DNA of 63,539 bases, counting the filler, from Mycoplasmatota bacterium (lineage in GTDB: Bacteria; Bacillota_I; Bacilli_A; RF39; UBA660): NCBI GenBank assembly GCA_012727915.1. It is 7 parts of 7 records of this genome, joined end to end, with 100 filler letters (N's around TTAATTAATTAA, not from the genome) between each part and the next. Parts side by side here need not be neighbours in the genome. Positions count along the whole stretch, not along the records: positions 27,836 to 35,302 come from JAAYGD010000050.1; positions 35,403 to 51,461 come from JAAYGD010000051.1; positions 51,562 to 61,569 come from JAAYGD010000053.1; 4 more parts are not named here. One strand, given 5' to 3'. Made by a program: the position numbers. Shown here piece by piece: positions 33,901 to 51,900 of this stretch. The stretch's first letter is position 1, and each line of letters begins with the position of its first letter.

Positions 33901-36900
33901 TATATTGGATATCATGAAAGTGGTCAAATATATATTTCTGATGTAGAATATTATCCAGTTGGAGCTTTAGATTCATTAGTTATTGATTTAAATAAAATGG
34001 TAGATAAGAACAACAAATGCAATTATGACATGTTGTCGTGTTTTGAATATATAAAGTTATTTTTAATAAATTGTTCGAAAGAACAATACGGAAATCAAGG
34101 TTTAATGAATATTGATGAAATATTAAAAGAATCTTTATTGAATACTTTTAAAGAGGAATTTAAAACAAAAATATATGAGTATTTAGATTTTAATGGGTAT
34201 ATTGATATTGTAGATATAGATTCTATTAATAGAGATATTATTAAGTTAAATACTATGTTAATTGATATTGATAATTATTATAAATATAGTAAGAAAATAA
34301 AACAGATAGAGTTTATATTTGAAAAGGCTTATGAGAGTTCTATATTGTCTGCAGAAAAGATTTTGTATAAATCTCTATATAGTTTTTTACATACATATAT
34401 TAACAATAACAAGTTAACTATAAGTATAGGATTAGATACTTCTTATGAAGGTAGAATGATTACTAAAAATTATTTATTATCTTTGGATGATAAAGTAGAA
34501 ATAAACACGTTATTTAGTTTATCAAAAGGAATAAATTACGATAAAAAGGATATAAATTACGATTTATTTGTATTAGCAAGTTCAACATTAGAAAAAGGAT
34601 ATAAAATTAATTTTAATATACTAGATTATTATGAGAAAGATTTAAACATATTTTATTTTGGTGACGGATCATGTTTAATGGATAGTAAACCTTTATCGGG
34701 AAGAGGATTTTTATCAAAGACATATTTAAATCTAGCTAGAATAGGAATAAAAAACAATAAATTAGGTGAAACAAAAGAAATGTTTTTTGTAGAATTAGAA
34801 CATATTTTGGATATTGTAAAAGATCAATTGATAGAAAGATTCAATTTTCAAAGTGAAAAGAAAGCATCGGATTTTCAATTTATAATTGGAGAGAATATTT
34901 ATGCGGATTCTAAAGGTATTAAACATAATGAAAAAATAAAGAAATCAATAAAGAATGGATTTTTAGGAATTGGAATTATAGGATTAAGTGAATGTATTAA
35001 ATCTTTAGATTATAAAATTTCTGATGAAGAAATAGTTGAATACATTAAAAATTTAATTAATATATATAAAAAAGATCATAATTTAAATTTTGTTTTGATT
35101 GGCCCTAATATAGATATTTCAAAAGAGTTTATTGATATAGATAGAGCCATATATGGTGATATAAAAGATGTTACATCAAAAGATTGTTATGATTATGAAT
35201 TCAATCAAAAAAACAATAATTATTACCAAACAACATTTGATGGTGGATATAGTATTATTAAAGATATAGATTATAAAGATGAAGAAAGTGTAATTGAATT
35301 TANNNNNNNNNNNNNNNNNNNNNNNNNNNNNNNNNNNNNNNNNNNNTTAATTAATTAANNNNNNNNNNNNNNNNNNNNNNNNNNNNNNNNNNNNNNNNNN
35401 NNTAATAAAAATTATGATAAGTATAACTGTATTCCTAATTGGGCAAAAAAATCATTAGAAAATCATATGGTTGATAAGAGAGAGTATATTTACGATTTAA
35501 AAACATTAGAAAAAGGTTTAACTCATGATGATTATTGGAATACTGCTCAAAAAGAAATGGTTATTACAGGTAAAATGCATGGTTATATGAGAATGTATTG
35601 GGGAAAAAAGATTATTGAATGGGCAAATAATCCTGAGGAGGCTTTTAGAGTTATGACATATTTAAATAATAAATATAATATTGATGGAAGAGACGCAAAT
35701 TCATATGCAGGTATAGCGTGGTGTTTTGGGAAACATGATAGGCCTTGGAAAGAGAGACAAATCTTTGGAATGATAAGATATATGAACCAAGAAGGACTGG
35801 ATAGAAAGTTTAAAATGGATGAATATAAAAAAATCGTTGACAATCTCAAATTGTAATATTATGTAAAATATATACTAAAAAGTTGTATAAAAACAAATTT
35901 ATTGATAGAATTAAGAAAGATAGGAGGTATATATGAAAAGAAATGGAAGAAGAAATTATTTTATTATAGCATTATTTTTATTAGTTGGTTTGTTAGGAGT
36001 AGGTTATGCATTATTTGCAGAGAGCTTATCTATAACAGGAACAGCAACATCTACCGGTACATTTGATATAGAGTTTTTTACAGCAACTGTAACTAGTAGT
36101 TCAAATGCTGGAGAACCAACTGCAACAATAAGTGGTGACAAAAACACTTTAACTCTTGTTGCAGATACTTTGTTAGTGCCTGGAGCTAATGTTCTTTATA
36201 CTGTTGAAGTTAAAAATGTTGGAAATGTATCAGCTGATTTAACAGATGTGTTATTAACTGATGATAATGACCCGGATATAACAGTAACTCTTGATCCTAC
36301 TTTATCAACCCCACTTACTATTGCGCCAAATGCTACTCATAGTTTTACAATAGAAGTAGAATGGGATTCTGGTTCTGGTAAAGGTTCAAAAACAGTTAAT
36401 TATACAGTTGATTTAGATTACGTACAAACCCCATAAAAAGAATATAAAGCCACTAAGTGTGGCTTTTATTTTATTGGAGATTATATGATAAGAAGGAAGA
36501 AAAAAAAATTAAAAATATTGTACATGGTAGTAATAGTAATTATTATTCTTTCTTTATCTGTTGGATATAGTTTGTTTGTTGAATCAATTAACATATTTGG
36601 TTCAGCAACAAGTATGCCAATAATATCTGGGCCAGATTTAGATATTAATTTAATTCCAAATGGAAGTATATATACTAATGGAACTTATCCCGCAAAAAGT
36701 ATAATTTTCCAAAGTGAAACATTAAATAGTAATGAACTTACTGTAAATTATACAAGAGATGGTACTACTGGAAAAAGGAATAATATTTCTATATCAATTA
36801 ATTTTACAAACAAATATCATTTAAATTTAACTTCGGGTACAACATCTTCACAAATTATTTCTGGTACTCAAATTACTAATTTATCTTCTGTATTAAGTAA

Positions 36901-48900: not shown

Positions 48901-51900
48901 GTGTGCTTTATCAATTAATAACAAGCGAACCTTTTGATCCTTTATCAACTTATTATGAATTATTAGGTGGAGTAATGACCCTTGTAAATAATGGAACCAT
49001 TCCTCCTCCCACGAATGTTTCATATTATTTAAATGATTTTGATGCTACTTATAATATGGCAGGATTTTATAGACAAGTAACAATTCCAAATGGAAATTCT
49101 ATTTCAGGATATTACAATAGTACCGGAGTAATTCAAACTGGTAACTGTGGTACCTGGGGCGGTTGTATTCTTTATGAACTGATTAATTACTATGACTCGC
49201 TCGGAGTAGAAGAAACAATAGATACGAGTGTGACATATTATTATATGGTAACTAGAGATACAAATATTATTGTATTAAACACAACATATACTACAATATG
49301 GGGTACGGGGGGGAATAAACCATTTACATTTACAAGTGTTCACAATGGAACCGATTACAGATCAAGTGGCGTTTATTGGAATGTTGCTTCGTTAATTATT
49401 AGAATATATAATGATGTTAATATTGAAAATATGTATATTAGAACAACATCAAATGTAAACAACACTGCACCTTCTAGTAGTACAAGTAGTTATAGATACT
49501 TATATGGAAATTGGAATAACGTAAGAATAGGAAGAGGAATAACTAGAAATGGAAATTATGTAAATTTTGAAACAATATTAGGAGGGGGTAACAACTCTAT
49601 AGGAAGCAGGGGAAATACTAAAAAATACAGATTGATTGTAGAATCAGGTAGATACTCTTCTTTTTCATTGGGAAATGGAAGCGTTGGAACTTCTTATACA
49701 AATTATATTGAAGCTAAAGGAATTTATGGAAACGATTATGATAGAGCAACATCTAATAATTCAAACTTACAATTATATTATTGCGCATCAGGAACTTGGG
49801 GAGGAAGAGTATATGCTTCTTCAAATTCAGCTAGGATTGTGGATTTAATTGTTAAAAGTGGAGATTTTGGATATGGTGAGTATGATTATACAACCGGAAT
49901 ATATGTAGGAGGAAGACAAGGCGGAACTCACTATGCAGCAAGAGCAGCAAAAATCGAAGGAGGAGTAATATATAACCTTATTGGTGGGCCTTTATCAGAT
50001 TCTAGTATGTCAAATTACAATGACTCATATATTTCTATGGTTGGGGGACAAGTAGGTGTAATAATTGGAGGAGCTGGTACAACCGCTACCTATGGAAACA
50101 GAATTATCCAAGTAACAGGAGGTTTAGTAAATTATAGTGTATTTGGAGGTTCAAACGGTTACCAAGGAACCGGTTCTGATGGAACAGTAATTGGGAGTTC
50201 CTTTATGTATATAGGAGGTAACTCAACAATTGGAAGTGATTATAACGTTGCTAATAATATTACTATTTATGGAGCTGAATCTGGTTCAGTTTTTGGCATA
50301 GGAAATGGAAGATCCGGATATTCATCAATTGGGTCTTCTAGTAGTTCTAACGTAATAATAGGAAATAGTACTACAATAAAAAGAAATGTTTATGGTGGCG
50401 GAAATTTTGGGGCAGTAGGCATTTCGAGTGGATCAAATACTACTTCAACGAATATTACCATTAATGGTGGAACGATAGAAGGATCCGTTTATGGCGGTGG
50501 AAATAATAATGGAGCTGGAAATGCAACTGTAACAGCTACCGTTAATATAGAAGTTAATGGGGGAGAAATAGCAGAGGCAATATATGGTGGAAGTAATACT
50601 TTAGGAAGCATATATGGTGATGTAAATTTAAGTGTAATCGGTGGGACGATAGGAGACTCTATTTATGGAGGAGGAAAAGGTGGATATCAAAATACAACTG
50701 CTTACGGAACATATGTAAGAGATGAAATTAATATAATCATTGGAGATACCGATTCAATACCTATTGTTACAAATAATATATATGGAGGAAGTGCATATGG
50801 TAGTGTTAATACTATCTCACAAACTCCAACTCTTTCAACTAATGGAATAAATATGACGATAGGTAATGTTAAAATATTAGGTTCTGTTTTTGGAGGTAAT
50901 AAAGGAGCAGTGGGATATACTCCTCGTGTTGCAGGGAATATTGAAATTACTGTAAATGACGGAACAATTCCAAATTTATTTGGAGGTAATGACCTTTCTG
51001 GTACTTTACTTGGAGATTCAACATTATATTTAAACGACGGAACAATTACTAATGTATATGGTGGAGGTAATCAAGTTCAGGCCAACACCACAAATATATT
51101 TTTACAAGGTTCAAATGTTGGAAGCATGTATGGTGGATCAAATCAAAGTGGAGATGTTGACGAATCGAATATAACTTTATCGAGTGGTAATTGTACTACT
51201 GTATATGGTGGAAATAATGTTGGTGGAGAAACTGAAATTACAAATATTACAGTCAACGGGGGAACTTATACAACAATTTATGGAGGAGGAAATTTAGCCC
51301 CTTCAGTAACAACTAATATCATTGTAAATGGAGGAAGTTCAACAACAATTTATGGAGGAGGAAAGATAGCCGCTGTCGACACAACAAATGTTACTTTAAA
51401 TGCTGCAACTATTCCAACTGTTTATGGTGGTGGAGAAAATGCAGATGTTACGGTTAGTTCANNNNNNNNNNNNNNNNNNNNNNNNNNNNNNNNNNNNNNN
51501 NNNNNTTAATTAATTAANNNNNNNNNNNNNNNNNNNNNNNNNNNNNNNNNNNNNNNNNNNNAAGGTATAATCTTTAACCCTTTAATTAGCAATTTAGAAC
51601 CACTTGGTTTTTTCGAATATAATGCTTTACAAATGAATGCCTTTTGTGTTTTATCGGATAGTGGTACTGTTCCAGAAGAAAGCGCTATACTTAATTTTCC
51701 TGGTATTTCTATGAGGACAAGCACTGAAAGACCAGAAGCTTTAGATGCTGGAAGTATTGTACTGGGTGGAAATGATGAATTTAATATGCTAAGTTCCATT
51801 GAGATTGCTGTTAGTTCTTTTGTTTCTGACCGTAAAAATCCCGTTAGAGATTATCAAGATTTAAATGTAAGTGAAAAAGTAGTAAAAATAATTCAAAGTT

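Follow-up and report, generated by a model that had tools for sequence, protein, structure and literature searches.

Two adjacent gene sets in a Mycoplasmatota genome, each of which probably encodes a TasA-like surface fibre

The window, the whole 63,539-nucleotide stretch of DNA analysed here from an uncultured Mycoplasmatota bacterium, carries a 15-kb region (35933-51461) made up of two separate, neighbouring gene sets; each has its own signal peptidase and probably makes a surface fibre of the TasA type. Module A (35933-39287, g427 to g430) is an AbpX-type locus. Module B (39350-51461, g431 to g441), cut off by the end of contig C34 at 51461, is a CoCoPALM locus, assigned on its features: an NxD-type GTPase, a membrane helix, a DUF2357 partner and peptidase neighbours. 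With a probability of about 0.6, the region comprises two independent surface-fibre systems set end to end, with a GTPase-linked assembly proposed for module B. The outline given in an earlier note, a cluster of 15 ORFs on one strand save for g438, with two TIGR02228 signal peptidases (g429 and g436), a DUF5305 protein, a DUF2357 protein and the N-terminal motifs of the secreted proteins, was borne out. Module A comprises the following features.

35933..36436, + strand: g427, AbpX-like pilin, probable major subunit (AbpX profile match, model)
36437..36484, + strand: stem-loop between g427 and g428 (terminator-like site 36446-36466)
36485..37045, + strand: g428, minor subunit or tip candidate (hhalign to g427)
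37054..38235, + strand: g429, SipW-type signal peptidase of the Ser-His class, about 8 hydrophobic segments (TIGR02228, 86.9 bits)
38235..39287, + strand: g430, DUF5305 protein with two membrane helices (Pfam, E 3.4e-15)

Module B comprises these.

39350..39850, + strand: g431, catalytically dead SipW-like (SipA-like) protein (hhalign to g436, 99.4%)
39856..40770, + strand: g432, secreted 304-aa protein, minor subunit candidate (column counts, hhalign)
40780..41754, + strand: g433, soluble protein with an EAL-like fold (Atlas)
41767..43305, + strand: g434, McrB-type AAA+ GTPase, NxD type (best PDB matches McrB, E 2.5e-4; NF008457, E 1.7e-5)
43309..44451, + strand: g435, McrC-like DUF2357 partner (Pfam DUF2357 only, E 3.1e-11)
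44432..45001, + strand: g436, SipW-type signal peptidase, active site intact (TIGR02228, 83.7 bits)
44988..45584, + strand: g437, TasA-superfamily pilin candidate (motif, hhalign)
45577..46164, - strand: g438, pilin candidate and candidate major subunit, in its own inverted transcription unit (model, Foldseek)
46349..47059, + strand: g439, g440 paralog without the cleavage motif (hhalign, motif counts)
47063..48037, + strand: g440, secreted 324-aa protein (column counts)
48051..51461, + strand: g441, giant surface protein, truncated by the contig end (repeats)

The two modules occur independently of each other. Among 36 genomes of the family, the GTPase was found in 14, DUF5305 in 21 (and in none of 24 other genomes sampled), and both in 9. 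Of 92 GTPase loci, just 5 have the two modules next to each other; 75 of the loci extend at least 4 kb upstream. Since the stretch thus joins two independently distributed modules, the earlier proposal of one operon for one new fibre, needing both peptidases, DUF5305 and the giant protein, is unsupported, and we judge it very unlikely. It would draw on the shared direction and short annotated gaps of g427 to g437, on contigs of two other runs that bridge the A/B junction and hence show the join to be real, and on the homology of g427 and g437, which makes mixed fibres conceivable. Besides the independent distribution, the P3 residue speaks against it, being G in 28 of the 34 module-A pilins and mostly T or S in module B, as does a weak promoter-like site at 39306-39334 upstream of g431, such sites being near chance overall (140 vs 121 +/- 12 expected). 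A single transcript is impossible, because g438 is inverted and a 184-base divergent gap precedes g439.

The profile of the g427 family (34 members) matched AbpX (9sj2_C; E 3.6e-7, positions 29-176 vs 3-159) over nearly the whole mature chain. The signal of g427 ends in G-Y-A / L-F-A-E, and its mature chain is acidic (pI 4.05; D+E 13.5%), with F28 and E30 providing the aromatic +2 and acidic +4 residues described for AbpX homologs; within the family, the aromatic residue is found in 22/34 and E in 15/34. In the g427 model (pLDDT 88.5), residues 29-45 are unpaired and followed by a beta-sandwich. A fold search with this model was unspecific, returning generic Ig-like folds, with TasA at rank 47 and AbpX absent among the matches listed. 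Weak matches to TasA/camelysin-type families were obtained in 3/34 (PF12389) and 2/34 relatives. The stem-loop 3' of g427 (-14.1 kcal/mol, z -4.25) could favour g427 output over downstream products. The next protein, g428, is basic (pI 8.2) and aligns to g427 (hhalign 95.9%) over the first 54 columns only, that is, the signal and donor-strand region.

The S285 and H323 motifs of the peptidase g429 are kept in 9/9 sequences. A crude hydropathy scan gave 8 hydrophobic segments for g429 and 5-9 for its relatives, compared with the ten helices reported for the AbpX peptidase and used as the AbpX criterion (bioRxiv 10.64898/2026.01.04.697558). Pfam gave no CAAX-protease-like family on 19 g429-family sequences, a result that still permits such a fold in their membrane part. 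A g429-like gene lies directly upstream of DUF5305 in 18 of 20 regions examined, and we propose that g430 is a peptidase accessory subunit. By itself, module A is another member of the described AbpX kind; the newness claimed earlier for a bacterial counterpart of an archaeal system does not hold, the combination of pilin, peptidase and DUF5305 already being in a 2026 preprint.

Sequence comparison makes the secreted proteins remote paralogs of one another that share a cleavage site like that of TasA. The TasA site reads TWA-AFND, with aromatics at P2 and P2', and column and motif counts indicate that the module families keep its shape: T-[FY]-G / R-Y in the g432 family (83 sequences, 44 of them with the strict motif), T-F-A / W-F in g437 (A33, W34 and F35 invariant in 68 sequences), T-Y-A / K-Y in g438 and T-Y-A / W-F in the g440 family, which is kept in distant loci, often in 2-3 copies. 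The strict pattern [TSG]-aromatic-[AGS]-x-aromatic is present in 4 of 8 single-helix cluster proteins vs 1 of 93 elsewhere in the genome, a contrast that is partly circular, the TasA site having been broadened into this pattern once these proteins had been seen. The motif also occurs in 28 of 73 SipW sequences, and is therefore no proof of substrate status. The members had been described as lacking paralogy by BLASTP, but they are paralogous at the profile level (hhalign 87-96% for the best pairs): g437 aligns to the g427/AbpX-like family (95.5%, E 1.6e-8, 137 columns), and g432 to g438 (86.7%) and to family F9 (95.8%).

The gene of g438 is inverted in 71/73 loci. In its model (pLDDT 90.9), residues 28-44, the strand after the predicted cut, are unpaired, and the best Foldseek match is the TasA fibre 8aur (E 3.7e-4). 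The fold scores to TasA are modest (TM 0.42, Z 5.9), and generic Ig-like matches score higher (Z 6.9). VIA-align placed residues 29-195 of the model on TasA residues 28-235, in register with the TasA donor strand (residues 28-38); this register and the free N-terminal strand in the two monomer models, g427 and g438, would be compatible with donor-strand exchange between subunits. A complex prediction for two mature g438 copies (0.30 and 0.23, against a mark of 0.42) counts neither way. A wide g438-profile search collected 3781 proteins at E <= 0.001, a large family to which it attached no names. At the sequence level, the profiles of g437, g438 and g440 matched no protein of solved structure, and no window protein reached the TasA or camelysin family cut-off. 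The part of the earlier reading that invoked SipW-type processing and TasA-superfamily, donor-strand-type subunits is supported by the AbpX match, the Foldseek match of g438 and the conserved cleavage motif.

The peptidase count of two had to be amended: g431 is a third peptidase-like gene (TIGR02228, 23.6 bits) without catalytic residues, the Ser-Met or His-Arg motif being retained in 0/64 sequences of its family. Its start at 39350 is favoured over a TTG at 39302, close relatives being 164-167 aa long. In the g436 family (73 sequences), S56 is kept in 100% and H99 in 97%, and g436 is fused to a g437-like pilin in 3 loci. The cleavage motif, present in 70/73 g440 sequences, occurs in 0/66 of its paralog g439 (hhalign 76% local, 50% global), which makes g439 a candidate membrane anchor at the fibre base. 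The present part of g441 holds 13 [VIL]-[YF]-G-G repeats, and complete homologs are 2438 aa (in a same-genus genome) and 2667 aa long. Pfam gave no match on these complete homologs, and the ESM Atlas no named cluster above 0.80 for g441. The proposal that the giant's C-terminus is a donor-strand-accepting pilin domain found no support (hhalign at most 1.3%). Contrary to the earlier note, the giant is not the last member of the cluster: 51461 is the contig end, and six more cluster genes follow the homolog in the same-genus genome. The queries used did not recover the remainder of g441 or the genes beyond it from the assembly.

At the centre of module B, g434, previously listed as family-less, is a membrane-anchored McrB-type NTPase. 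It begins with membrane segments, with an N-terminal helix at 62-80, a weak FtsL match on 56-133 (E 0.011) and a probable coiled coil judged by eye. Across 92 sequences, no variation was seen in Walker A (222-230), Walker B (292-296) or the stretch G-T-I-N-N-D-D-S-T (350-358); within the latter, N353-N354-D355-D356 aligns to the McrB signature and gives the NxD followed by D/E expected in CoCoPALM. These invariant catalytic motifs fit motor and regulator roles alike. No nuclease domain was recognisable on g435, all of whose invariant columns fall within residues 47-248 and which, as to the coiled coil of CoCoPALM McrC homologs, gave weak helical-bundle matches only; neither a PD-(D/E)xK nuclease on g435 nor a DNA-binding domain on g434 was found. 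The gene after g434 is g435 in 92/92 loci, and g433, g436 and g437 lie near the GTPase in 89/91, 86/90 and 82/88 loci, respectively. SipW-type genes are located within five genes of the GTPase in 15 of 20 hand-picked distant loci. Because the other 5 have no peptidase nearby (4 of them among very large proteins), the GTPase motor is not bound to pilins everywhere. The GTPase module was detected in 86 of 399 genomes sampled from the phylum.

EAL enzymes carry the catalytic motifs E-x-L-x-R, DDFG and EG[VI]E. The Atlas relates g433 to EAL proteins (features 0.91; structure rows TM 0.53), and each of the three motifs was found in 0/78 sequences of the g433 family; its profile found no solved relative by sequence. 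In 7 loci, g433 is fused behind the SipW domain, at its cytoplasmic end. A c-di-GMP role for g433 is weakened, since the genome (93.8% complete) encodes a single GGDEF protein, with D-G-N-E-F at that motif, and searches of it gave no member of the EAL family. GGDEF genes, present in 34/36 family genomes, do not separate genomes with the system from those without.

What does the GTPase do? The boldest reading, the energised pilus, which we consider less likely than not, is that module B would be a TasA-superfamily donor-strand pilus grown from within the cell by a restriction-derived, GTP-burning ring that hands precursors kept in the membrane to a live/dead peptidase pair; in this genus it would also have taken in an AbpX-type module and might share its fibre. 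Alternatively, module B could be an export and display machine for giants, in which the small secreted proteins make up a short stalk or membrane complex rather than a long fibre and the GTPase pushes or unfolds the cargo. Giant genes indeed lie beside the GTPase in many close loci and in 4 of the 5 distant loci without peptidases, five different subunit families suggest a complex apparatus, and the last 260 residues of the giant match no pilin family; however, TasA/AbpX-like subunits with free N-terminal strands typify open-ended polymers, and some loci hold shorter giants of about 620-1240 aa, so that we find this version unlikely. The McrBC-like pair might instead be a regulator that senses GTP or a dinucleotide via g433 and times the peptidase cut or the release of a surface structure. 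The fusion of g433 to the SipW domain, its EAL-like fold and the fact that no energy source drives the assembly of TasA-superfamily fibres such as CanA would suit such a regulator, which the loss of the EAL motifs and the failure of one g433 profile to detect the protein in the 20 distant loci render improbable. Finally, McrBC descent and kinship with CoCoNuT defence systems would agree with a continuing defence role, such as that of an abortive-infection sensor that sits in the membrane and guards a fibre used as phage receptor. The pair lacks a nuclease domain on g435 and a DNA-reading domain on g434, and shows 58-95% identity and fixed gene order across genera, unlike defence islands; we therefore hold a defence function to be highly improbable.

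In the reading that we favour, that of two independent fibre systems, the many-helix peptidase g429, aided by DUF5305, would cleave exported g427 after G-Y-A, and g427 would polymerise as its freed N-terminal strand inserts into the next subunit. In module B, the signal helix would keep the precursors g437, g438, g440 and probably g432 in the membrane until cleavage by g436 after T-aromatic-small, and donor-strand exchange would link the cut subunits. The uncleavable g439 most likely anchors the fibre base, the dead peptidase g431 is most likely a chaperone that binds precursors, and the giant g441 may be the adhesive cargo. On the cytoplasmic side, the DUF2357 partner would activate a membrane-tethered McrB-type GTPase ring, whose task is most likely to drive or gate assembly rather than to move DNA, with g433 as a putative scaffold or sensor. 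In relatives, module B would comprise g431 to g441 plus six more genes.

According to published descriptions, fibres of the TasA superfamily need no energy source for their assembly. If a conserved GTPase module is linked to the peptidases of such fibres, this would amount to a new way of assembling or controlling them and to a restriction motor recruited for another task and, if the energised-pilus reading is true, to the first machine known to put energy into building fibres of this class. The locus supplies a full, testable parts list for CoCoPALM. Both fibre systems are kept in a 0.87 Mb genome that also encodes two PF00437-family secretion/pilus ATPases and, outside the cluster, two ordinary signal peptidases.

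The pilin-peptidase-DUF5305 layout and the CoCoPALM arrangement are already known, and the cargo set of module B with its GTPase is a variant. CoCoPALM, with RHC33375.1 as its representative, was named in 2024 in one paragraph (Bell et al., eLife 2024, PMC11090510), and our literature searches found no follow-up paper. Module B shares with that description an NxD-type McrB GTPase that carries an FtsB-like membrane helix and a probable coiled coil, the adjacent DUF2357 partner and signal-peptidase-family neighbours including a SipA-like one. The CoCoPALM paragraph names no cargo; in module B, the cargo is a set made up of TasA/AbpX-like paralogs with a SipW-type site, one giant protein with repeats, a paralog that cannot be cleaved and a protein of EAL-like fold. 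The module B pair shares AAA+ GTPase motifs and a DUF2357 activator with the McrBC restriction enzyme, but is membrane-anchored and has no methylcytosine reader or nuclease. AbpX-type loci, known from archaea, Bacillota and Chloroflexota (January 2026 preprint, bioRxiv 10.64898/2026.01.04.697558; PDB 9sj2), share with module A the acidic pilin (pI about 4) with aromatic +2 and acidic +4 residues, a minor subunit, a many-helix signal peptidase I and a two-helix DUF5305, and are characterised by calcium-triggered polymerisation. Unlike them, module A has no SLH or LPXTG anchor or sortase, and has a CoCoPALM locus as its neighbour. Tafi pili of haloarchaea (PMC11821415, PMC12337348) likewise have donor-strand pilins, a dedicated Ser-His peptidase (TafD) and a DUF5305 protein (TafG), but are mostly Tat-exported, and the passages on them describe no GTPase module. 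The Bacillus subtilis tapA-sipW-tasA operon (PMC9674648, PMC10269814) shares the dedicated Ser-His SipW peptidase, the T-aromatic-A / x-aromatic site and, as predicted here, the donor strand at the mature N-terminus; it has three genes, without GTPase or DUF5305, and the window proteins reach no TasA/TapA family cut-off. Like g431, Streptococcus pyogenes SipA (PMC4049620) has the signal-peptidase fold but lacks catalytic residues, and its gene lies in a pilus locus; SipA, of Ser-Lys-type origin, is described there as serving sortase-made pili, whereas g431 is a dead Ser-His copy beside a live one.

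The whole of contig C34 (window 35403-51461), from a 0.87-Mb genome with a completeness of 93.8%, carries the 15 open reading frames described in the earlier note, and our listing likewise places one of them on the opposite strand:

45577-46164, minus strand: g438, the inverted gene

Directly 5' of g427, a class II photolyase gene truncated by the contig start retains only its C-terminal portion (window 35467-35856, plus strand; TIGR00591, E 1.5e-61). Contigs from two other public runs bridge the g430/g431 junction, and the inverted gene is also spanned, showing that the arrangement is no assembly artefact. 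The metagenomes in which the stretch occurs are catalogued under digester, landfill, bioreactor, wastewater and terrestrial sources. By eye, a separate contig (window 51633-61293, plus strand) holds glycosyltransferase-like, flippase-like and polytopic membrane genes unrelated to the finding, and on another (window 61868-63538, plus strand) a reading frame has a type IV prepilin-like beginning (G-Y-T-L-V-E) followed by units that resemble leucine-rich repeats.

We gathered 96 loci of the g434 GTPase and removed four known duplicates. Among the remaining 92, which may include further duplicates and kin that are not independent, and part of which are the best 80 of 227 relatives, g435 followed g434 in all 92, g433 preceded it in 89/91, g436 was the second gene after it in 86/90 and g437 the third in 82/88, and g438 was inverted in 71/73. 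DUF5305, the family of g430, occurred in only 5 of the 92 loci, 75 of which offered at least 4 kb of upstream sequence. Of 36 genomes of the family, 14 encoded the GTPase, 21 DUF5305 and nine both, close to the eight expected if the two were independent. Five of these nine lie outside the genus, and there the two are either 62 kb apart or split between contigs; in one of the same genus, a contig break falls between them. A many-helix peptidase lies directly upstream of DUF5305 in 18 of 20 regions, in most cases itself preceded by one or two relatives of g427. Taken together, the locus counts and the independent distribution among genomes show that g427-g430 (module A) and g431-g441 (module B) are separate modules, and not the single operon that had been proposed.

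Within module B, g434 had been counted among the family-less proteins, but its best PDB matches are McrB (E 2.5e-4), making it a McrB-type AAA+ protein. It has a membrane helix at residues 62-80, and 92 sequences show no variation in Walker A, Walker B or the G-T-I-N-N-D-D-S-T motif. Family searches upheld the assignments of DUF5305 and DUF2357, the latter to g435, the partner of g434. Conservation of g435 is concentrated in residues 47-248, and neither family search nor conservation revealed a nuclease domain on it. The soluble g433 resembles an EAL domain in language-model features and predicted structure, and the EAL catalytic motifs were found in 0/78 sequences. A role of g433 in c-di-GMP signalling is doubtful for this genome, since its only GGDEF protein reads D-G-N-E-F. 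This protein (locus L117:1483-3429, minus strand), in which the motif is degenerate, has an extensive extracellular region, and most genomes of the family encode GGDEF proteins of comparable length.

The two TIGR02228 signal peptidases reported before, g429 and g436, were confirmed, but a third homolog, g431, had been overlooked; its catalytic motifs are kept in 0/64 sequences. By comparison, across 73 sequences of g436, S56 is present in 100% and H99 in 97%. Two ordinary signal peptidases are encoded elsewhere in the genome. SipW is fused with a g437-like pilin in three loci and with g433 in seven, indicating that these parts of module B belong together. In one subtype (loci L029-L035), with SipW fused to the EAL-like protein, the g437-like pilin reaches about 405 aa, with an unassigned C-terminal half.

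The secreted proteins of module B are distant paralogs of one another; profile comparisons gave 94.7% for g437-g438, 96.4% for g438 and protein family F9, and 86.7% for g432-g438, as well as 95.5% over 137 columns for the g427 family and g437. PMC9674648 and PMC10269814 give the TasA site as TWA-AFND, with aromatics that hinder ordinary peptidases, and the TasA donor strand as residues 28-38. The strict pattern [TSG]-aromatic-[AGS]-x-aromatic was present in 56/68 g437, 80/92 g438, 70/73 g440 and 44/83 g432 sequences, in 0/66 sequences of g439 and 8/42 of the giant g441, and also in 28/73 SipW sequences. Genome-wide, four of eight single-helix cluster proteins and one of 93 others carried it, in a form widened after viewing these proteins. 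In the model of g438 (pLDDT 90.9), residues 28-44 have no pairing partner, and the best Foldseek match of this model was the TasA fibre (E 3.7e-4, TM 0.42), the archaeal bundling pilus ranking fifth. The VIA-align superposition on TasA (Z 5.9, rmsd 4.2, 140 aligned) opens with residue 29 of the model on residue 28 of TasA, and generic Ig-like folds reach Z 6.9, above TasA.

The earlier note had taken g441 as the end of the cluster; in fact, the contig end cuts this gene. In a same-genus relative, the homolog measures 2438 aa and is followed by six further genes, encoding a soluble protein of 492 aa, another dead peptidase, a further protein like g438, one more peptidase like g436 and two additional secreted proteins. 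Homology queries found these downstream genes on none of the contigs of this 93.8% complete assembly. In 22/92 loci the giant gene adjoins a gene for a soluble protein that has no Pfam family and measures about 500 aa (family F10; L168:10981-12459, plus strand).

Of the 399 genomes of the phylum that were scored, 86 carried the GTPase domain at E <= 1e-40, often as multiple copies; in several large families it was not detected. Among 20 distant loci picked by hand, SipW-type genes lie within five genes of the GTPase in 15, in most cases together with relatives of g439 and g440, and the g433 profile found no g433. Two variants stand apart as observations: tandem GTPase genes around one DUF2357 gene, with very large proteins and no peptidase within five genes (L219:7832-12426, plus strand), and a divergent 895-aa relative of the GTPase with about 11 hydrophobic segments (L225:7834-10521, plus strand), similar lengths recurring in several genomes.

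We favour, with a probability of about 0.6, two donor-strand fibre systems, the GTPase pair powering or gating that of module B. Precursors of module B would be held in the membrane and cut by g436, with the dead g431 as their chaperone, much as PMC4049620 proposes for streptococcal SipA; the subunits would then polymerise into a fibre anchored by g439, in an assembly powered or gated by g434/g435. The comparisons establish the gene content, the homologies, the conserved motifs and the independence of the two modules, whereas cleavage, polymerisation and what the GTPase does are inferred.

Five of the 20 distant loci lack a nearby SipW-type gene, and four of these are surrounded by genes for proteins of roughly 1000-2400 aa; that the machinery exports giant proteins is nonetheless unlikely. 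We consider it equally unlikely that the GTPase pair is a regulatory switch, a role partly compatible with two fibre systems. One joint fibre built from both modules is very improbable, and a defence role for the McrB-type protein and its partner marginally more so.

Judged by its features, module B corresponds to CoCoPALM (PMC11090510), a named but uncharacterised system, the published figure of which possibly depicts part of this gene set. Among the papers listed, largely outside subscription journals, only the eLife paper and its preprint concerned CoCoPALM, with no follow-up among those from 2024 on; other work cited is PMC9245690 and PMC11580942. The locus supplies a detailed parts list for CoCoPALM.

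Module A, from its sequences, is a new member of the AbpX type. A profile of 34 g427-family sequences matched AbpX (PDB 9sj2_C) along almost all of the mature chain, at E 3.6e-7, the next unrelated match being at E 0.25; against this reading, the fold search with the g427 model was unspecific, and the CARDB similarity noted earlier reflects this generic Ig-like fold. A strong stem-loop 3' of g427 (z -4.25) would fit a major-subunit gene. With a pI of 4.05, an aromatic residue at +2 and an acidic one at +4, mature g427 agrees with what bioRxiv 10.64898/2026.01.04.697558 reports for AbpX homologs. The same preprint describes Bacillota and Chloroflexota loci that encode minor subunits and DUF5305 besides a peptidase of ten helices, and this lineage may be among the loci in its table. 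Tafi loci, in PMC11821415 and PMC12337348, likewise pair a peptidase with DUF5305. The local novelty is the side-by-side position of AbpX-type and CoCoPALM modules in this genus.
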